DNA from: Alphaproteobacteria bacterium
GTDB taxonomy: Bacteria > Pseudomonadota > Alphaproteobacteria > Rs-D84
DNA length: 64,000 nucleotides
NCBI GenBank assembly: GCA_009784815.1
Contig: WQXN01000001.1
Coordinates: 65,857-129,856 of the forward strand
Direction: 5' to 3'
A model generated the notes under the pieces. That model had not been told where the DNA came from. It saw only the letters and a list, made by a program, of their open reading frames with translations, and searched no databases. Position 1 is the stretch's first letter. The number at the start of each line of letters is the position of its first letter. Below, piece by piece: positions 228 through 52,235 of the stretch. The translations under genes were made by a program, and so were the position numbers.

Positions 228-257
228 TTGACAAAATGCGCAGGGGGGGGGTAGACT
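228..257 (+). promoter_or_regulatory. Sigma70-like promoter with a G9 tract filling the 3' half of the spacer
   Basis: TTGACA 228-233, 18-bp spacer ending in G9 (243-251), TAGACT 252-257. AAGGA RBS at 269-273, ATG at 280. Confidence 0.55.
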
Positions 258-6678: not shown

Positions 6679-7146
6679 ATGTTAAAGCCTATATCGAAAG
6701 AGGGTATGGATACCCTGCTTTCCGAGCTTGTTAAATTAAGGGACTATGATCGCCCTCCGCTTATGCTGGCAGTCCAGGCCGCGCGCGAGCTTGGCGATCT
6801 TAAGGAAAACTCGGAATATCAGATGGCCCGCGAGAAGCAGAGGCTTATAGACCACAGAATTAGGGGCCTAGAGCATATTATAAAGGAATCCCAGGTAATT
6901 CACATATCCGACCTTTCGGGCGATGTCATAACTTTTGGCGCGACGGTCGAATTAGAGGACGAGGAAGGAAAAACCGCGACATACCAGCTGCTTGGCGATA
7001 CAGAAAGCGATATCGAAAAAGGCAAAATTTCCATCACCAGCCCCATAGGAAGCGCCCTGAAAGGAAAGAAAAAGGGCGATTTCGTGTCTATCAGGGCGCC
7101 AGGCGGTGTAAAGGAATTCGAGGTCCTATCCGTAAGGTTTGTCTGA
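6679..7146 (+). CDS. greA: Transcription elongation factor GreA
   Basis: N-terminal coiled coil with ...AARELGDLKENSEYQMAREKQ. C-terminal ISITSPIGSALKGKKKGD. Confidence 0.95.
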   Translation: MLKPISKEGMDTLLSELVKLRDYDRPPLMLAVQAARELGDLKENSEYQMAREKQRLIDHRIRGLEHIIKESQVIHISDLSGDVITFGATVELEDEEGKTATYQLLGDTESDIEKGKISITSPIGSALKGKKKGDFVSIRAPGGVKEFEVLSVRFV

Positions 7147-8825
7147 TGGCTATAAGAATACTGGCCGATTCTTTGATAAACCAGATAGCGGCGGGCGAGG
7201 TGGTAGAACGGCCCGCTTCGGTGGTTAAAGAATTGATAGAAAATGCGCTGGACGCAGGCGCGGACCATATAATCGTCGATGTGATTGACGGCGGAAGAAC
7301 TACTATTTCCGTTATGGACAACGGGCGCGGTATGCCCCGCAAGGATCTTGTTAAATGCGTCATGCGGCACGCCACCAGCAAACTTGCCGACGATGATCTT
7401 CTTAACATCTCTACTATGGGATTCCGAGGCGAGGCTATGCCGAGCATCGCATCCGTATCCGACATGACCGTGTCGAGTTTTTATGAAGGCGAAGGTCTGA
7501 AGCTTGACTGTTCGACGCTTGCCGTGACTCCAAATTCGGTTACTGCCGGAACGATCGTTCGCGTCGATAATCTTTTTATGAAAACCCCCGCCAGGTTGAA
7601 ATTTTTAAGGTCCGACCGGTTTGAACTGGCAGCGGCGCGCGAAGTCTTGCATAGGCTTGCCCTGGCGCGCCCTGATGTCGGATTTTTATTCAACCAGAAT
7701 GATCGTTTTCCAAAAGGTCAGGATATCTTAGAGCGTGTGTTAAGCGTAACGGGAAGCGACTGCGAAGGGCGCCTCCGTGAGGTTGATATGCACGACGGCG
7801 AAGTTGGGATTAATGGTTTCGTTTCCGATCCGGGCTTGCGGCGCGCATCCGCCGCGGATCAGTTTTTATTCGTGAACGGCCGGCCCGTCAAGGACAAGCT
7901 TTTGGTGGGCGCTCTGCGCGCGGCGTTTTTCGACGTCATGCATGCGCGCGAATTTCCTGTGGCTGTTCTTTACATTAATCTGCCCAACCGCGACGTCGAC
8001 GTCAATGTTCATCCCGCCAAGACTGAAGTGCATTTTCTGGAGCCGTCCCGTATCCGCAGTTTGATGGTCCGCGCCGTGCGAAAGGCCATAGCCGATCCGC
8101 TGAACAAAATCCCCGGGGTTTCCAAGACTGCAGGCGTTTGCGCCGCGCAGTTTTTGGGAAACTCTTTTCCCGGCTTTTTGGATAAAAATTGCGTAAAAAT
8201 GCCGGATGATAACGGGCCGATTCCTTCATTATTTTCAGAGGAATCCAAGGATTTTACGACTATGCCTTTGGGTAGGGCTATAGGTCAGATTTTTAACAAA
8301 TACATTCTGGCCGAAAATAGCAAAGGCCTGGTTCTTGTCGACCAGCACGCGGCGCATGAAAGGATTGCTTACGAAAAGCTGCGTAGTCGCAAAATGCCGG
8401 CTCAACCACTTTTGGTTCCCAAAGTCATAAGCATGAGGCCAAGCGAAGCCGCGGCCGTTCTGGAGGCAGCCAATGATTTGGCCGAATCCGGGTTAGTCCT
8501 GGAAGACTTCGGAAACGGGTCCCTTGTCGTGCGCGAGGTTCCTGTCTGCATGGACGCCGAAGTTGAAAATCTGTTAAAGGTCATAGCGACCGAGGTTCGG
8601 GATAAGGGATCGTCAATCGCTCTGAACGAGCGGCTTCATTCCAAGCTTGCCAATTTCGCCTGTCACAGGTCGGTCCGCGCGGGGCGGAAACTAAGCCTTA
8701 TGGAAATGGACGCGCTGCTTCGCGACATAGAAAATACCGATCGCGGCGGCGTCTGCAATCACGGGCGCCCCGTTTATAAAGAAATTTCTATTGCCGAGCT
8801 TGACGCGATGTTTGAAAGAAGCTAA
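7146..8825 (+). CDS. mutL: DNA mismatch repair protein MutL
   Basis: GHKL ATPase motifs IAAGEVVERPASVVKELIENALDAGA and DNGRGM. C-terminal dimerisation domain with QHAAHERI. Confidence 0.95.
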   Translation: MAIRILADSLINQIAAGEVVERPASVVKELIENALDAGADHIIVDVIDGGRTTISVMDNGRGMPRKDLVKCVMRHATSKLADDDLLNISTMGFRGEAMPSIASVSDMTVSSFYEGEGLKLDCSTLAVTPNSVTAGTIVRVDNLFMKTPARLKFLRSDRFELAAAREVLHRLALARPDVGFLFNQNDRFPKGQDILERVLSVTGSDCEGRLREVDMHDGEVGINGFVSDPGLRRASAADQFLFVNGRPVKDKLLVGALRAAFFDVMHAREFPVAVLYINLPNRDVDVNVHPAKTEVHFLEPSRIRSLMVRAVRKAIADPLNKIPGVSKTAGVCAAQFLGNSFPGFLDKNCVKMPDDNGPIPSLFSEESKDFTTMPLGRAIGQIFNKYILAENSKGLVLVDQHAAHERIAYEKLRSRKMPAQPLLVPKVISMRPSEAAAVLEAANDLAESGLVLEDFGNGSLVVREVPVCMDAEVENLLKVIATEVRDKGSSIALNERLHSKLANFACHRSVRAGRKLSLMEMDALLRDIENTDRGGVCNHGRPVYKEISIAELDAMFERS

Positions 8826-12284: not shown

Positions 12285-13292
12285 TTATATATCTATCCGA
12301 TCCAATATACGGTTCATTTGGCCGCGGATATTGCCGTCTTGTCTTTTTAACTGGCTGCGGAGAGTTTTATGTATATCGGTGATTTTTAAGTCGTTTATCC
12401 CGGCGCGATCCAATACCCTTTGCCAGGCGCGCTTGGGGTCCACAAGATGCCCCGCTCCCGCTCCTGTGCTTGGAAATACGAATTTAGATTTCTGCGGGAG
12501 GGATTCAAGCAGCACTACCGCTTGGTCCGCAAGGGGTTTTCCGTTCCAAGTGTTAAGATTCAGGTCCAAATCGTCCCAGCGCATTGCTAAAACTTTGCTT
12601 TTGTTCGCAAAGCCGTAGGCCAGCATTTTAAGGGCCGCCCTCATGTTAGGGTTTTTTTCCATATCTATCGCGCGGCCGATCAGCGAAAATTCCCCCGCGC
12701 TGATATGGCGCGATCCTTTTCGTTCGAAAAATTTTTCAAGATCTTTTGTAGGATTGTCCGATGCGTATCCTTCTTCAATCGCGGCGTTGAATATAGCCGA
12801 CATGGTTTCCCGCATACGGTTAGCGGTGGACTGGCCGTTTTCCTGGGCGATTTTTGAATGCAGTAGCGACAACTGCGCCGGCGTTATGTCGGAAAGCTTC
12901 AGGGGCAGGACTTCGGTCCAAAGACGCCCTATGTTGCGTTCCAGTTTTTTCTTGGATGCCGCTTCACGCCGGACTCTGTGTTTCAAAAACAATTCCGTCA
13001 TTTTGCCCAAAGTCATTTTGCCGGTCCTGATCGGCAGCGGAGTTTTCATTTTAATTATCGCTGTACCGGCCAGCTCGCGCGCGTCGTCTATGTCTATGTC
13101 GGGATAGTTGCCCAGTATCTTGCGGGTGTCTTTTCCGCGAGCTCGTTTTCTGACGAAAAATGTTTTCGCTCCGTTTGCCGTAATATAAAGCTGAAGGTCG
13201 GGATGATACGAATCACGCACCACTTCAAAGCCGGTTTTCGGCGGTATCAGGCTGTCCAGGACGGCGGAAGTGAAGGGAAAGCGAAGCGACAT
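12285..13292 (-). CDS. Degenerate P4-type (Arm/DUF4102 N-terminus) phage integrase, probably catalytically dead
   Basis: The N-terminus ...FEVVRDSYHPDLQLYITANGAKTFFVRKR... is the typical integrase arm-binding domain. The ORF is only 335 aa. The LAMRWDDLDL and IHKTLR relics are present. I cannot find the C-terminal His/Trp...Tyr segment, and the first catalytic Arg position reads N/K. Confidence 0.6.
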   Translation of the reverse strand: MSLRFPFTSAVLDSLIPPKTGFEVVRDSYHPDLQLYITANGAKTFFVRKRARGKDTRKILGNYPDIDIDDARELAGTAIIKMKTPLPIRTGKMTLGKMTELFLKHRVRREAASKKKLERNIGRLWTEVLPLKLSDITPAQLSLLHSKIAQENGQSTANRMRETMSAIFNAAIEEGYASDNPTKDLEKFFERKGSRHISAGEFSLIGRAIDMEKNPNMRAALKMLAYGFANKSKVLAMRWDDLDLNLNTWNGKPLADQAVVLLESLPQKSKFVFPSTGAGAGHLVDPKRAWQRVLDRAGINDLKITDIHKTLRSQLKRQDGNIRGQMNRILDRIDI

Positions 13293-13372: not shown

Positions 13373-13403
13373 TTGACATTTGGCCGCGGGGGGGGGGTAG
13401 CAT
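13373..13403 (+). promoter_or_regulatory. Sigma70-like promoter with a G10 tract in the spacer (pyrE-pyrF)
   Basis: TTGACA 13373-13378, 19-bp spacer ending in G10 (13388-13397), TAGCAT 13398-13403. pyrE ATG at 13455. Confidence 0.5.
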
Positions 13404-13454: not shown

Positions 13455-14171
13455 ATGTCTGACTTTACGCCCGATCAAGTGACCGGCATGAAGGCCGAGC
13501 TTGTACAAGGTTTTATGGATAAAAATATCCTGAGAATTGCAGCCGCCGAAGAAGAGCTTGCGCCGGAAAACGGCCCCGGCTGGTTCAGATTAAAAAATAA
13601 ATCCCTCTCGCCTTTGTTTTGGAGCATTCAGACCCTTCATTCTTATCCGAGATTATTCGAGCTTATGATTATTCTTATGTCCGAAAAAATCAACGAGGCC
13701 GGAATCCGATACGACCATATCATGGGCGTGCCCGAAGGCGGAAAATGCCTTGCGGCGGCGCTGGGTTTCTATCGCGACGAAAGCATTATTTATATGCGTA
13801 AAGAACCGAAAGATCACGGCCAGGGAGGCTTGTTGATCGGAGATTACAAGGAAGGCGACAAGGTGCTTGCGGTTGAAGACGTTATAACAAGCGGCGGTTC
13901 CGTGGATCGCGACGCGTCCGACAAGCTTATACAGGGTACCAGCGGCCAGCTTGAAGTGACAAGCGCCATAGTCGGGCTTGATCGCCAGCAGAAGGGCGCG
14001 GGCGAAGATCCGACTCAGAACGGCGCGGCCTACCTTGCTTCCAAGGGTATCGAATTGCTTTCCGTCTTCACTCAGGCCGAAGCGATAAAATACTGGGAGC
14101 CGAAAACCGATCATCATAAAGCCATGAAGCCGATCATCGAGGCTTATTTGGCGAAAACCATCGTATCGTAA
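13455..14171 (+). CDS. pyrE: Orotate phosphoribosyltransferase-like (type I PRTase)
   Basis: PRPP-binding motif KVLAVEDVITSGGS, upstream MGVPEGGKCLAAAL, and KEPKDHGQGG flexible loop. Adjacent to pyrF. Confidence 0.75.
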   Translation: MSDFTPDQVTGMKAELVQGFMDKNILRIAAAEEELAPENGPGWFRLKNKSLSPLFWSIQTLHSYPRLFELMIILMSEKINEAGIRYDHIMGVPEGGKCLAAALGFYRDESIIYMRKEPKDHGQGGLLIGDYKEGDKVLAVEDVITSGGSVDRDASDKLIQGTSGQLEVTSAIVGLDRQQKGAGEDPTQNGAAYLASKGIELLSVFTQAEAIKYWEPKTDHHKAMKPIIEAYLAKTIVS

Positions 14172-14183
14172 AAGGAGTTTATA

Positions 14184-15023
14184 ATGGCTAATGATAAGAT
14201 AATAGTTGCTTTGGATTATCCGAACGAAGGCGCCGCGCTTGAACTTGTGCGCAAATGCGACGGCCGTCCGGTAAAATTCAAAATAGGCAAAGAGCTGTTC
14301 ACCAACGCGGGGCCCGACATCGTGTCCAAGATCATAGATCTTGGCGGATATGTCTTTCTTGACTTGAAATACAACGATATATCGAACACTGTTAAGGGTG
14401 CTGCGAAAGCCGCCGCGAATCTTGGTGTGGACCTGTTCAATATGCATGCAAGCGCCGGATTTGAAAAAATGAAGGCGGCGAAAGAAGGCGTGACGGAAGT
14501 CGCCTCCAAGGAGCCGTTCAGAGAACCGAGAGTTATAGCCGTCACTTGTCTTACCGATATGGACGAGCATGATCTGAAATTGATCGGAGTAAACGAGACT
14601 CCGGCCGAATACGCCGCGCGCCTTGCGAACTTGGCCAAGCATGCCGGAATGGACGGCGTGGTCTGCTCTCCGAAAGAGCTGCCGATCATGCGTTATATTC
14701 TGGGTGACGACGCTACTTTGGTGACTCCGGGCATACGTCCCAGATGGTCCGAGGCCAACGAACAGAAACGCATTACCACTCCGGCGGACGCGATTGCTAA
14801 CGGAGCCACCATGCTGGTCATAGGCCGCCCGATTACGGGGCACGAGGATCCGGCCAAGGCGATAGATCTTATCGCGGACGAAATTTTGGCCGCCATGCCG
14901 CGATATAATTCGAACGTTTTGAATCAGGACGACAGGACAAAGCTGGATGACTATCTAAAGCAGCGCAACATGGAGCTTGCGGCTTATATGAAGCTTCGAG
15001 GCCGCCAGCAGAGCTGTTCGTAA
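14184..15023 (+). CDS. pyrF: Orotidine-5'-phosphate decarboxylase, with a roughly 40-aa C-terminal extension
   Basis: IIVALDYP..., FKIGKELF, FLDLKYNDISNTV (DxKxxD), LVIGRPIT. Confidence 0.9.
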   Translation: MANDKIIVALDYPNEGAALELVRKCDGRPVKFKIGKELFTNAGPDIVSKIIDLGGYVFLDLKYNDISNTVKGAAKAAANLGVDLFNMHASAGFEKMKAAKEGVTEVASKEPFREPRVIAVTCLTDMDEHDLKLIGVNETPAEYAARLANLAKHAGMDGVVCSPKELPIMRYILGDDATLVTPGIRPRWSEANEQKRITTPADAIANGATMLVIGRPITGHEDPAKAIDLIADEILAAMPRYNSNVLNQDDRTKLDDYLKQRNMELAAYMKLRGRQQSCS

Positions 15024-15030
15024 ATGTAAA

Positions 15031-15060
15031 AAACAAAGGGCCTTCCGGCCCTTTGTTTTT
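15031..15060. terminator. Bidirectional intrinsic terminator between convergent pyrF and the radical-SAM gene
   Basis: AAACAAAGGGCC-TTCC-GGCCCTTTGTTT perfect 12-bp stem, flanked by an A-run and a T-run. Confidence 0.8.
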
Positions 15061-15982
15061 ATCGCATCTTTTCTGATATTTTTTGTGCGGCAAGGTCAAG
15101 AAGTTCGTCGCGAAGCTGGCCTGCCGGGATGAACCGGCCTTTCTTATTCCTATAATTTACCGCTATGCTGTTGTCCATGCCTAAGGTGAGGGCAAGCTTG
15201 CCGTTGCTTGTGAAGTTGTATCCAAGAAAGCGCGACTCGCCTTTTTCTTCTATGTGATCCAGTTCGTCCTTCCAGTCCAAGTCGTGCTTGTGCGGCCAAT
15301 CCAGTTTTTTGGCGCGTCCTATGTTGATCAAATGTCCGCTCCATCTGTCCAAGCGCGTCCGGCCCACATATTCCGAAATTTTCAGTTTCTTTTCGTAAGG
15401 CAGGCCTGTGGCAAGAATCCGATCCATATTTTCGTTAAACCAGGCTGTTTGAATCATAACTTCCGAGCTTATGTTTCTAAGCTTCGGATTTGTGTAAAGC
15501 TCGGTCATGATCTGAATATTCTCGGAAAAATTGTCGTGCCATTGATCCATCGAAAGATGAAGCTTGAAAAGATCGGATGATTTGGTTGCCAGCAGCTCTA
15601 GGTCAGCTATGAAGCGGTCGTAATATTTTGCGCCGGCTTTGGCTATCCAGCCGTTGGTTTTAAGGATCATTAAAGAATTGCGCTTGATCCCGGCAAGGCA
15701 TATATCACTTAGGTAATTAGGGTCTATGTCGTAGGCAAGTGTGGCTTCGCCGCCGCTTATCAGAAACCCTCCGCATTTGAAGCGGGGGTTATGGCGCAGC
15801 TCGTCCATGTAGAATATTACGTCTTCTTTGGGTATAAGTTTGTTTTTTACGCCTGGCCCCGAATTCTCGCCGCAGTGCGCGCATGCAAGATTGCACGACC
15901 GGGTTATTGAAAACTTTGTCGTGTAGTCGACAGTCGCGCTTGCCAGTAGTTCGCGGATTTCCGAATATGATTTGTCTGGCAT
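15059..15982 (-). CDS. Radical SAM protein, function unknown (308 aa)
   Basis: CxxxCxxC cluster motif SCNLACAHCGEN and GGE motif FLISGGEATL. Start placed at the ATG at 15982 (MPDKSY...) behind an AGGAGGG RBS. The track start at 16054 is the TTG of a TTGACA -35 box and reads through the C9 tract. Confidence 0.8.
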   Translation of the reverse strand: MPDKSYSEIRELLASATVDYTTKFSITRSCNLACAHCGENSGPGVKNKLIPKEDVIFYMDELRHNPRFKCGGFLISGGEATLAYDIDPNYLSDICLAGIKRNSLMILKTNGWIAKAGAKYYDRFIADLELLATKSSDLFKLHLSMDQWHDNFSENIQIMTELYTNPKLRNISSEVMIQTAWFNENMDRILATGLPYEKKLKISEYVGRTRLDRWSGHLINIGRAKKLDWPHKHDLDWKDELDHIEEKGESRFLGYNFTSNGKLALTLGMDNSIAVNYRNKKGRFIPAGQLRDELLDLAAQKISEKMR

Positions 15983-16010: not shown

Positions 16011-16038
16011 ATTTTAAGGGGGGGGGTAAATTTGTCAA
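16011..16038 (-). promoter_or_regulatory. Sigma70-like promoter with a C9 tract (coding-strand sense) in the spacer
   Basis: Minus strand reads TTGACA (16038-16033) AATTTA C9 (16026-16018) TTAAAAT (16017-11). The spacer is 15-16 bp. A second TTGACA lies at 16054-16049. Confidence 0.5.
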
Positions 16039-21146: not shown

Positions 21147-21713
21147 ATGGGCGATTGGGGTTCCGCTGTTTATGTGACCAGTCAGATTTTGCAAGGCTTG
21201 GCGTATCTGCTTCTGATGTTCACCTTTTTTATAATAAGCAGAAAATTGCAACTTGCGGCCGTTATTATCGCAAGCGTGTTTATGGGCGCGGGGTTTTTAT
21301 TGCTAGGGGGGGGCATGGGCGCCGCTGTGCTTGGCGTCGCTGTATGCCGCGATGTTACAAGTTATTATCTTAACGGCGCAAGGAAACCAGAAGACAGAAG
21401 CAAGATTACGAAATCGGATTGGTGGCTTTTGGCTTTATGGGCGACTTTGGCGTCCGCTCTCTCGCTGTTCGCTTATCACGGGTTGCCAAGCCTGTTCGCC
21501 TATTTCGGCATGATGTCTTTTACCGTCGCCATATGGCAGAAAAATCAGGCGATATATCGTATTCTTGGCGTTCTTGCCGCGGTCTTTTGGATTATCTATA
21601 ACGTGGTTCTGGATTCTTTTGTGGGCACGGTGTTGGAGGGCGTATTCCTGTTATCCGCCGTCATGGGCTTGATATTGTATTTGAAAAATTACAGTTCTTT
21701 CAGAAAAGTATAA
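21147..21713 (+). CDS. Integral membrane protein (weak resemblance to the YgjV family)
   Basis: About six hydrophobic helices. AAGGA RBS before the ATG at 21147. Contains an in-frame G8 tract at 21306-21313. Confidence 0.6.
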   Translation: MGDWGSAVYVTSQILQGLAYLLLMFTFFIISRKLQLAAVIIASVFMGAGFLLLGGGMGAAVLGVAVCRDVTSYYLNGARKPEDRSKITKSDWWLLALWATLASALSLFAYHGLPSLFAYFGMMSFTVAIWQKNQAIYRILGVLAAVFWIIYNVVLDSFVGTVLEGVFLLSAVMGLILYLKNYSSFRKV

Positions 21714-32302: not shown

Positions 32303-32431
32303 TTTCTTTCTTTTCTATTTGGGGCCCCCATGCCGAGCAAGCGTAGCGCAGTGCAGGTATGGGGAGTTTTCCTCTCTCTCACTTGATTAATCATTATAAC
32401 ACATTACTATATGTAGGAAAAAGGAATAACT

Positions 32432-49364: not shown

Positions 49365-51084
49365 TTATCTTTTTGAAAACTTTGCCCAAATATTCTTAAA
49401 ATGGCCGTTGGATTTTTGCAATTCGGAAAAAGTTCCGCGTTGCACTATTTTTCCTTTGTTGAACACGTATATTTCGTCGAAAGAATCCAGAAGATTCAGT
49501 TTATGAACCGAGAAGATCAAAATCTTGTCTTTAAATTTTTTTGATATTTGATCCATAATCGTCCGTTCGGTCAAACCATCGACCGAGCTGGTGCATTCGT
49601 CGAACAACATTATCCCGCTGTCTTTTCCGGCAAGCAATCCGCGTGCAAGCGCAAGGCGCTGCTTTTCTCCGCCGGATAAATTCACTCCCTTTTCGAACAG
49701 GTGGGTGGCAAGCCCTTTAGGCAGACGTTCCATGACCGAATCGAATTTGGAAATTTTTACCGCTTCTTCTACGTCTTTATGGGAATATTTTGCGCCTACC
49801 GATATGTTATATTCGATCGTGTTTTCGAAAAATTCCGGGTCTTGCGGTATATAGATCGAATGGCCGTCCAAGTGCGATATATGTTTCGCGCCGACGTTGG
49901 GTCTTAGGATTCCGCGTATAAGCATCATAAAAGTGGATTTACCCGAGCCGCTTGCGCCCACCAATGCGATTTTCTTGCCGCGTTTGGCGGTGAATTCAAA
50001 ATCGTTTATTTCAACTGCGGGAGATTTCGCGTCACCGTATCTGAAGCTTAGGCTCCTGATGTTAAACGAGTTCGGCGCGCCGCGGGATTTTTTGGATGAT
50101 ATGTCCTGGTGCGGTTCCTTGAATATAACGTCCGCCTGTCTTATTGTTATTCCATTTTCAACCATTTCGTCGTATGTTTCGGCGAAATCGAAAAAATTGT
50201 CGGCGGCGCGGCTTAGATAAAGTTTAAGCGCCACCAGCACTCCGATATTTATGACGTTTCCGGACCGGTACGAGTCGTACGCGTGCCAAAGGATCATTGC
50301 ATACCCCAGCACTATTATGCTGATCACCATAAACGACCACTTGCGCTGGTTTACCATAGTGCTTTTATTAAAATCTGGGTATATAGCTTCGTTGGTCGCT
50401 TCTATATTCGCTTGGGTTTTTAGTCCAAGCCTTAGGCTTAGGATCGTTCTCATGTTTGATACGTAGTCTTGGAACACGCTGCTAAGCTTTTGGCTTTTCA
50501 CATGAAGGTTCGCCCACAGGACTGAAAGTTTGCCGTTCATGAAATGCACGAACGCCACCAGGATCATAAGCCATATCGAATAGACCGCGGCCATTTTCCA
50601 GTTCAGTAAATATAAATACACTATTGCGAAAGTCAGACTAAATACTATGTTTATGTATGCGTCGATTTTCGATATGAATGTCGATATGGCGCCTTTGGCG
50701 GCGTTTATTATATGGATCGATTTTCCCGAATGGTTGCTGTTGTGCCATGATTGGCCCAGCTTTCGCATATGCTTGTAAGCGCTTAGCGTAAAGCGTTTTT
50801 TAACGCGGAATAATTCGCGATCCCTTGCTATTCGGCTTGCCTGGCGCACAAGAACATGCCCCGTATGCGTCGCGCACATGGCAAGCATGAATATTACGAA
50901 AGTCTTAAATTGAAGGTGTAGGGGGGGGGGTGGAAAGATCGAGGCTGGATATGGCGCGGCCAAAAAGCATTGGCCCGGCAAGCGCAAGCCCCGTCGAAAT
51001 CATAAAGCCCGCCGTAAACAAAGCCACGCGCCATTTATTTGCGTATTTGAAAGATGTTTTGGCAAGGATTAAAAGATTTATCAT
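49365..51084 (-). pseudogene. ABC exporter (fused TMD-NBD) interrupted by a frameshift at a C10 tract; phase-variable, pseudogene or homopolymer sequencing error
   Basis: The NBD is intact (GASGSGKST, LSGGEKQRLALAR, IMLFDECTSSVD). TM1 (MINLLILAKTSFKYANKWRVALFTAGFMISTGLALAGPMLFGRAISSLDLS) is read from the ATG at 51084 in a different frame and ends at a TAA just after the tract at 50921-50930. C9 would join the two frames. Confidence 0.75.
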
Positions 51085-51133
51085 ACTGGGATTATTTCAA
51101 AAATCAGGAATAAATTCAATGAATAATTGCCGA

Positions 51134-51162
51134 TTTATAGGATCTAATAATTAGCTTGACAA
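51134..51162 (-). promoter_or_regulatory. Candidate promoter for the ABC exporter, with its -35 overlapping the divergent promoter's -35
   Basis: Minus strand reads TTGTCA (51162-57), 17-bp spacer, TATAAA (51139-34). TTGTCAA is the reverse complement of the plus-strand TTGACAA. Confidence 0.4.
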
Positions 51163-51182
51163 AATACGGGGGGGGGTAGAAT
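51156..51182 (+). promoter_or_regulatory. Sigma70-like promoter with a G9 tract in the spacer
   Basis: TTGACA 51156-61, 15-bp spacer ending in G9 (51168-76), TAGAAT 51177-82. AGGAGG RBS, ATG at 51225. Confidence 0.55.
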
Positions 51183-51224
51183 ACGGCGTTAGATTAAACG
51201 AATCGCAAAAAATAGGAGGCGAAA

Positions 51225-52235
51225 ATGAAGTTAATGACCAAAGAGCAGTTTGAAAAGAAGCATGGGCGCGTTTATCACAATGGGATCCATATTGATCATG
51301 CGCCTAACGACGATTTGAAAGCAGAGTTGCTTGCCGAATATCAGCCCGAGCACAGGTGGATGATAGCCAAACATTTTCCTGGTAGTCATTTTTGCTCGCT
51401 GGGCCTGCATGATCTGAAAATCATTTTTGATAATCTTAAAGAAGAAACCAACGCGAATGTAATTCATTATTATTTGAGATATTTGGATCACAGATATTTC
51501 AGCTGTGGCTGGGGATGGTTTTCGCGCGGGGGACAGGGGCTTTCCACGCATAATAGGTCTGTTTCGGATATCGATAAGAACGAAAGGGCCGAGGGTGTAA
51601 AAGTTATAAAACTGTTCAAAGAAAAATTCCAAGAATTCGGATATTATCCAAAATATGGAAAAATGCAGTATATGAACGACTTGATAGTTATATATGGCGG
51701 AAAAGTGGATAATGCGCGCGAGGATTCGGAAGCAAGAAAAAGGCTTAGGGATAGAGAGATCGCAAGCGACAACGATGAACTGATCGATCAAAAAGTTAGA
51801 TCCATGTGCGACCAAGGCGAAAACACCTGTGATAAAAACGATAAATACGGCCATGACGTGTTCGATCGCCAAAAAAATATAGAAACAAAGGAAGACTTAA
51901 AAAACTGGCTATTTGAAGTGTCGGCCGTCATAGGTCTCATAGCGACGCCCACCAAAACTTATCCCGATATGATGACTATGAAAACATTCCGGAAGGTTCT
52001 TGAGATGTTTAATATAGACTTGTCGGATATCATGACGGACGACCGCGGAGAATTGGTTCCGTTCGAATCATACGAAGAAGACGACAAGATACATGAAATT
52101 GTAAGCTTCTTCCGTCAAGCGAGCCGCCGTGTGGACTGCCTATTGTTTGCCAATATGAGGGATATTAAAAAACCCGGCGTGGTTCAGAGTATCAAAAATG
52201 CGGTATCAAAATCTGTCCTGTCACCAAGTCATTGA
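51225..52235 (+). CDS. Hypothetical protein (336 aa), orphan, visibly AT-richer than its neighbours
   Basis: Strong RBS (ATAGGAGGCGAAAATG). Charged, Lys/Asp/Glu-rich, with no signal peptide. No family recognised. Confidence 0.65.
   Translation: MKLMTKEQFEKKHGRVYHNGIHIDHAPNDDLKAELLAEYQPEHRWMIAKHFPGSHFCSLGLHDLKIIFDNLKEETNANVIHYYLRYLDHRYFSCGWGWFSRGGQGLSTHNRSVSDIDKNERAEGVKVIKLFKEKFQEFGYYPKYGKMQYMNDLIVIYGGKVDNAREDSEARKRLRDREIASDNDELIDQKVRSMCDQGENTCDKNDKYGHDVFDRQKNIETKEDLKNWLFEVSAVIGLIATPTKTYPDMMTMKTFRKVLEMFNIDLSDIMTDDRGELVPFESYEEDDKIHEIVSFFRQASRRVDCLLFANMRDIKKPGVVQSIKNAVSKSVLSPSH

Follow-up and report, generated by a model that had tools for sequence, protein, structure and literature searches.

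A candidate ON/OFF poly-C tract in an ABC exporter gene of an uncultured alphaproteobacterium

Results

A frameshifted exporter gene and its two reading frames

The DNA analyzed here, hereafter the window, is a stretch of 64,000 nucleotides (nt) on a 237,851-bp Joint Genome Institute (JGI) contig belonging to the metagenome-assembled genome (MAG) ‘Alphaproteobacteria bacterium’ (locus tags FWD33_). Its minus strand carries a gene for an ATP-binding cassette (ABC) exporter whose reading frame is broken at codons 52–55 of 572 by a run of ten C residues (C10 on the gene strand, 50921–50930; G10 on the plus strand). The same run appears with nine residues in two other assemblies, and we argue below that it is probably a contingency tract, turned ON and OFF by slipped-strand mispairing, of which both states have been captured. 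The features of the locus are as follows.

49365–51084, minus strand: predicted ABCB-type type I exporter half-transporter gene, 572 amino acids (aa) with C9, frameshifted with C10
50921–50930, minus strand: C10 homopolymer (G10 on the plus strand) at codons 52–55; C9 in the ENA assembly, with the in-frame (C9) product on a Logan contig
50905–51084, minus strand: OFF-state peptide of 59 aa, consisting of the N-terminus, the first transmembrane helix (TM1) and 4 out-of-frame residues
49365–50888, minus strand: remainder of 507 aa that lacks TM1 (NCBI MCL2629190.1), from an internal ATG at 50888, 16 nt past the OFF-state stop
51091–51119, minus strand: putative promoter of the exporter gene, TTGAAT-17-AATAAT with TG before it, identified solely by consensus match

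From the ATG at 51084 the upstream frame reads MINLL...SSLDLSTPPPTPSI and reaches a TAA stop at 50905–50907, 4 codons past the tract, for a product of 59 aa; with C10 this translation starts MINLL and ends GRAISSLDLSTPPPTPSI. A second frame crosses the tract as part of a 540-aa open reading frame (ORF; 49365–50987, minus strand) that reads ...IFPPPPLHLQFKTF... at this point. Editing the tract in silico to C9 produces a single 572-aa ORF, ...LSTPPLHLQFKTF..., and an edit to C12 likewise restores the frame (573 aa), while the C8, C10 and C11 versions all end early, at 59–63 aa. The junction peptide of the in-frame product is ...SSLDLSTPPLHLQFK, and the OFF peptide has the C-terminus ...STPPPTPSI. 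Outside the tract there is no second lesion, and 507 aa of uninterrupted ORF remain. An earlier note on this DNA, made from the sequence alone, had described the C10 run at 50921–50930, a TM1-encoding frame that opens at ATG 51084 and closes at a nearby TAA, a 540-aa ORF in another frame with an intact nucleotide-binding domain, and a rescue of about 572 aa by C9; all of this held, the intactness of the domain being borne out by ATPase motifs that are invariant in alignment (see below). As in known phase-variable genes, then, a G/C run of at least 8 nt lies within the ORF and near its 5′ end, a change of one nt in either direction toggles between full length and termination, and the OFF product comprises TM1 only.

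In the restored protein, Pfam recognizes ABC_membrane (PF00664) at residues 22–290 and ABC_tran (PF00005) at residues 360–499. A membrane domain followed by a C-terminal ATPase with its motifs is the architecture of an ABC type I exporter of the ABCB-like half-transporter kind, and the best solved relatives are ABCB1, Ste6 and ABCB4. The score reached neither the NdvA/ChvA equivalog (NCBIfam NF010178, 203 bits against a cut-off of 733) nor the MsbA equivalog (TIGR02203, 180 bits against a cut-off of 602), and from its sequence the exporter is best classed as a generic ABCB-type half-transporter, assignable to neither NdvA/ChvA nor MsbA.

We aligned the restored protein with its four closest homologues (P0002–P0005, 44–50% identical). 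Residues 1–51, from the upstream frame, align with the N-termini of these proteins, with Y14, F27 and P38 invariant, and the downstream frame aligns with them from the second transmembrane helix (TM2) to the C-terminus, with Walker A, the Q-loop, LSGGEKQR, Walker B and the H-loop all invariant. The alignment indicates that both halves flanking the tract belong to one gene. Hydropathy places TM1 at about residues 20–40 and TM2 at about 61–79; since codons 52–55 fall between the two, the tract lies in the TM1–TM2 loop. More precisely, it sits within a five-residue insertion, TPPLH, and because this insertion is absent from all four of the closest homologues, we regard it as an addition specific to this lineage, in a loop tolerant of changes in length. 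By analogy, a tolerant loop near the 5′ end is the usual site of a contingency repeat, and repeat enrichment near N-termini marks phase-variable genomes (PMC3315296, PMC2831843).

The homologues also show where the tract does not occur. The contigs that carry these nearest sequences contain no G/C run of 7 nt or more, and the sequences themselves lack the tract; when the restored protein was searched against GTDB species genomes and JGI metagenome contigs, the only matches were distant ABC ATPases, at 23–30% identity. Comparison of orthologues, proposed earlier as a check on the frameshift, supplied four single-frame homologues without the tract, and no close orthologue that bears it was found.

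Tract length differs between assemblies

As a comparison we used ENA ERZ27264051 (MEGAHIT contig k141_6361525, 238,032 bp), an independent assembly of the same organism, which was compared with the window over positions 1–25023 and 28286–64000, or 60,738 nt. There are three differences in all, two tract indels and one substitution.

50921–50930: G10 in JGI, G9 in ENA; within the ABC exporter gene
13388–13397: G10 in JGI, G9 in ENA; in the promoter of pyrE-like/pyrF
32315: C in JGI, T in ENA; the sole substitution, intergenic, between an AsmA-like gene and uvrB

If three differences fell at random, the probability that two would hit the 47 nt occupied by G runs of at least 9 nt is about 2e-6. 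Only 2 of about 115 runs of at least 6 nt differ between the assemblies, these being the two longest tracts, and the 109 A/T runs of this size all agree. Three G9 tracts and one G8 tract of the window are identical in JGI and ENA, and a C9 tract in a relative (described below) is identical in JGI and Logan, so the JGI assembly does not generally overcall G runs. Moreover, to judge by the substitution at 32315, the two consensus sequences were drawn from different haplotypes or read sets.

Further evidence for the in-frame allele comes from protein records. The sole other member of the 90%-identity cluster of MCL2629190.1 is P0121 (545 aa; ENA and Logan), which reads ...SSLDLSTPPLHLQFKTF... and represents the C9 in-frame allele, called from Met28. 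Logan contig SRR10512954_25462 (81,947 bp) carries the exact in-frame product, its allele being known through that product. The 59-aa OFF peptide and the 507-aa product are on record from the JGI contig only, and exact look-ups of the products expected of C7, C8, C11 and C13 alleles found none on record. The exporter tract is thus C10 in one assembly (JGI) and C9 in two (ENA and Logan), and at the consensus level this change from C10 to C9 separates assemblies that differ at just two other compared positions. The earlier description of the gene as currently OFF is true of the JGI-derived record and does not extend to ENA and Logan, which give C9. Taken by itself, a C10 confined to one assembly fits an assembly error and a mixed, phase-varying population equally well.

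The annotations of the gene follow the state of the tract. MCL2629190.1, named ‘ABC transporter ATP-binding protein/permease’, starts at an internal Met, lacks TM1 and carries no frameshift flag; the 545-aa call in ENA starts at Met28, and homology supports Met1 at 51084.

A class of long G tracts in promoters and coding sequences

The exporter tract has company. We compared run counts in the window with those expected under an analytic first-order Markov model of the same sequence, and found five G runs of at least 9 nt where 0.25 are expected, an enrichment of about 20-fold, and two of at least 10 nt where 0.06 are expected. Shorter and A/T runs deviate in the other direction: G runs of 6–7 nt are depleted (3 observed against about 13 expected), as are A/T runs of at least 8 nt (3 against about 10). 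Long tracts are thus over-represented relative to composition, as is typical of phase-variable genes, and the run-length distribution is bimodal, homopolymers being generally avoided and G9–10 enriched. Avoidance of slippery runs together with a spike at 9–10 nt is the signature of selected hypermutable tracts.

All six G runs of at least 8 nt in the window have G on the plus strand, and none has C there. Four of the six are promoter spacers that lie exactly between perfect TTGACA and TAnnnT boxes; the earlier note had listed these four (228–257, 13373–13403, 16038–16011 and 51156–51182), and we recovered each of them. Besides the exporter tract, the members of this class are:

228–257, plus strand: promoter TTGACA-N9-G9(243–251)-TAGACT, spacer 18, before an orphan 145-aa gene (280–717)
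13373–13403, plus strand: promoter TTGACA-N9-G10(13388–13397)-TAGCAT, before pyrE-like and pyrF; spacer 19 here, 18 in ENA (G9)
16011–16038, minus strand: promoter TTGACA-N6-C9(16018–16026)-T-TAAAAT, spacer 16, before a radical-SAM-like gene (15059–15982)
21306–21313, plus strand: G8 coding tract, in frame (Gly-Gly-Gly), in a membrane-protein gene of the Imp-YgjV family; intact state
51156–51182, plus strand: promoter TTGACA-N6-G9(51168–51176)-TAGAAT, spacer 15, of the divergent neighbor of the exporter gene, before an orphan 336-aa gene (51225–52235); G9 in both assemblies

The 10 kb that follow the window contain three more tracts (L024 12381–12388, 14176–14184 and 14491–14499), one of them again in the form TTGACA-N9-G9-TAGACT, which brings the count to nine in about 84 kb, a density of one per 9 kb. 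In all nine of these G/C runs of at least 8 nt the G lies on the plus strand regardless of the orientation of the gene (two-sided chance about 0.004), and the plus strand is G-rich, or leading-like, along the whole window, with a cumulative GC skew that rises monotonically. The uniform strand of the G residues suggests that the origin or the retention of the tracts depends on the direction of replication.

Judged by ParE, the nearest relatives (80–85% identity) are MAGs labelled Rickettsiales. In 22-kb samples of two of them, one has a single in-frame C9 and the other has no tract. The C9 (G9 on the other strand) lies within the coding sequence of a fused pyrF-pyrE gene in relative L021 (12258–13754). 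At the orthologous pyrE/pyrF position both relatives lack a promoter tract, so the tracts are evolutionarily young.

Several observations concern the surroundings of these tracts. The pyrE-like gene (13455–14171) and pyrF (14184–15023) serve housekeeping pyrimidine synthesis and are unusual targets for contingency tracts. Directly upstream of their G10 promoter, and divergent from it, is a phage-type integrase gene (12285–13292; Arm-DNA-bind_3, Phage_int_M), and the arrangement of an integrase beside pyr genes is also kept in L021. An antisense promoter at the exporter tract was considered and rejected, as the plus strand after the tract reads TGGAAA and by eye offers no TAnnnT box. The window also encodes a full-length MutL (7146–8825; HATPase_c, DNA_mis_repair, MutL_C); MutS was not seen in the window. 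With MutL encoded, the organism has mismatch repair at least in part, which sets it apart from Campylobacter jejuni.

Setting of the exporter gene

The exporter gene stands alone, convergent with yebC and divergent from the orphan 336-aa gene, whose product matched no Pfam or NCBIfam family. With its putative promoter ending 6 nt before ATG 51084 and no Shine-Dalgarno sequence, it may give a leaderless mRNA; the neighboring genes have clear AGGAGG-type sites. A trough in GC content at about 50000–52000 (0.435 against about 0.50) covers the 5′ part of the exporter gene and the orphan 336-aa gene, and this region with its two tract-associated genes may be an acquired islet. No homologue of the exporter exceeds 50% identity, though the ParE relatives reach 80–85%.

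Discussion

A probable slipped-strand switch

The reading that we favor, and think probable, is that the C run switches the exporter gene. With nine C's the ribosome would read Ser-Thr-Pro-Pro-Leu across the tract and continue into a full 572-aa transporter, predicted to have six transmembrane helices and an ATPase domain and to work as a homodimer. Slipped-strand mispairing during replication would add one C and shift the frame after TM1. Cells with C10 would then make the 59-aa peptide and at best a 507-aa protein from ATG 50888 that lacks TM1, has the wrong topology and would not work, and loss of the extra C would restore the gene. Expression may not fall to zero in the OFF state, as tRNA-Pro +1 slippage on CCC-C, or slippage of RNA polymerase, could plausibly allow some leak. 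The sequenced population would hold both lengths, the JGI record having fixed the OFF allele and ENA and Logan the ON allele. Where the same type of tract forms a promoter spacer, the gain or loss of one G would alter the distance between the –35 and –10 boxes. We infer that C10 is present in living cells and not merely in one consensus; switching would be fast and reversible and presumably useful to the organism.

Several points weigh against this reading. The mixed population is deduced from assembly consensus rather than from reads, and C9 is found in two of the three assemblies. Both assembly indels go in the same direction (JGI +1), and both JGI lengths give the ‘worse’ state, namely a frameshift in the exporter and a 19-nt instead of an 18-nt spacer in the promoter. 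All long tracts in ENA are G9 or shorter, a regularity that would be expected had JGI simply overcalled two of five G9 tracts. Slippage may be reduced by mismatch repair, since MutL is encoded, and one of the promoter tracts controls the housekeeping genes pyrE-like/pyrF, which is atypical for contingency loci. Finally, there is no close tract-carrying orthologue to show variation over evolutionary time.

Alternative explanations

The earlier note had named a switch, a young pseudogene and a homopolymer error, and leaned towards biology on account of the promoter tracts. The main alternative to a switch is a technical miscall, an explanation that we hold to be possible, if unlikely. The organism would have C9, with the gene permanently ON in this sample, and an extra base would have entered the JGI consensus at two G9 runs by way of homopolymer sequencing noise, slippage during library amplification by the polymerase chain reaction, or read error-correction or assembler bubble resolution, with no need for OFF cells; the tract would nevertheless remain slippage-prone in principle. 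Consistent with a miscall, the C10 allele, the 59-aa peptide and the 507-aa product are all confined to the JGI-derived contig while ENA and Logan are in frame, the shared direction and lesser function of the two JGI indels are what an overcall would leave, as is the absence from ENA of tracts longer than G9, and the nearly equal lengths of the JGI and ENA contigs (237,851 and 238,032) suggest one read set processed by different pipelines. Homopolymer noise cannot, however, make the true substitution at 32315. The agreement across assemblies of the other four G8–G9 window tracts and of the relative's C9 also speaks against it, and about 61 kb with 109 A/T runs of at least 6 nt shows no further homopolymer indel or broken gene. 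De Bruijn assemblers, moreover, keep the majority path, and a minority error allele is not expected to win twice.

A second alternative accepts C10 as genuine but supposes that it is decoded to full length, by tRNA-Pro +1 slippage on CCC-C or by RNA polymerase slippage, so that the frameshift would set a low level of expression instead of an OFF state. It is known that tRNA-Pro is prone to +1 shifts at CCC-C and that transcription can slip on long homopolymers. Wherever in ACC-CCC-CCC-CCT a +1 shift occurs, it yields the exact protein sequence of the C9 allele, and some leak of an OFF allele by ribosomal or polymerase slippage is likely. Against recoding as the normal mode of expression, basal +1 slippage is ordinarily only about 1%, the same organism has a C9 allele that is in frame, and the four closest homologues have neither tract nor frameshift and hence no conserved recoding signal; no stimulatory element was seen either, though no search aimed at one was made. 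As the slippery site is not conserved in these homologues, which are single-frame with a five-residue gap, the gene does not belong to a programmed-frameshift family, and we consider recoding quite improbable.

The young pseudogene that the earlier note had allowed for, in which a one-base insertion marks a gene starting to decay, can draw on the broken gene of the JGI record, the low-GC stretch (0.435 against about 0.50) and the lack of an orthologue closer than 50% identity beside ParE relatives at 80–85%, which suggests an accessory and perhaps dispensable gene, but it is very unlikely and the least probable explanation of all, because two other assemblies of the same organism carry C9 and the gene is otherwise free of lesions, with 507 aa open, every catalytic motif intact and the one frameshift lying at a reversible hot spot.

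Meaning of the tracts

Returning to the slipped-strand switch, if both lengths coexist in cells, the organism randomly switches an exporter and probably several promoters as well. Random switching of this kind is bet-hedging, which is known mainly from a few host-adapted pathogens, and here it would be a clue to a host-associated life or to phage- or immune-like pressure. More tentatively, the exporter tract might be one member of a dense, strand-polarized system of G9–G10 tracts that spans promoters and ORFs, lies mostly in promoter spacers right against TAG-type –10 boxes, and reaches even housekeeping genes; we find this doubtful enough to offer only as a suggestion. If the observed density holds, there would be more than 100 tracts per genome, several-fold above Campylobacter or Neisseria. 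Such a system, if true, would mean that expression is tuned stochastically across the genome, in a lineage without described phase variation.

For annotation, the 507-aa ‘ABC transporter’ without TM1 at NCBI is an artefact of the state of the tract, and users of MAGs should treat G/C runs of at least 9 nt as positions of uncertain length.

Comparison with known systems

The appearance of the locus recalls the homopolymer errors of short-read metagenomes, which also produce one-base disagreements at runs of at least 10 nt and apparent frameshifts in intact genes. It differs from them in that only 2 of about 115 runs of at least 6 nt are affected, in the accompanying substitution, and in that the affected runs belong to an enriched class at functional positions.

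Among biological systems, an ABC transporter has a precedent in Mycoplasma fermentans, where, according to the account of Theiss and Wise (1997) cited in PMC3711429, p78 in an ABC transporter operon undergoes phase variation by poly-A frameshifting. A homopolymer frameshift toggles a component of an ABC transporter in both cases, but p78 is a surface lipoprotein that binds substrate in an importer-type operon and varies through poly-A, whereas the gene described here encodes a fused permease-ATPase exporter and contains poly-C.

The promoter tracts resemble promoter-spacer switches such as fetA of N. gonorrhoeae and N. meningitidis, porA, and fimX of B. pertussis, as four window tracts lie between TTGACA and TAnnnT (PMC5320596, PMC1891110). 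Neisseria fetA is controlled by a poly-C between the –10 and –35 boxes (PMC5320596), and in the fimX promoter tract a 1-nt change brings a 3.8-fold change in transcript (PMC1891110); in the window, the tract at 13388–13397 differs by 1 nt between assemblies, which takes the spacer from 19 to 18. Unlike in these systems, the spacer tracts of the window serve genes other than the ABC gene, one of them pyrE-like/pyrF, and the G runs mostly abut a TAG-type –10 box, with G always on the same DNA strand.

The exporter tract itself is closest to the poly-G/C contingency loci of Campylobacter, Helicobacter, Neisseria, Haemophilus and Bordetella, which have a run of 9–10 nt early in the ORF (PMC8355987, PMC5320596, PMC1891110, PMC2823697). 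As in these loci, a change of one nt in either direction toggles between full length and an early stop, and the tracts exceed chance expectation; in length the exporter tract differs between assemblies of one lineage, at the level of their consensus. In C. jejuni, runs of similar length change state at rates of 1e-4 to 1.6e-3 per division (PMC8355987), and in B. pertussis G/C runs are polymorphic inside single cultures (PMC1891110). In contrast to those loci, switching is here inferred from the disagreement of assemblies, and MutL is present; the host is an uncultured, Rickettsiales-like alphaproteobacterium known as a MAG rather than a classical mucosal pathogen; and the target is an inner-membrane ABC exporter rather than a surface antigen, a glycosyltransferase or a restriction-modification gene. 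The mechanism that we propose is textbook homopolymer phase variation, and what is new is the host, the fused ABC exporter as its target and, apparently, the density and strand polarity of the tracts.

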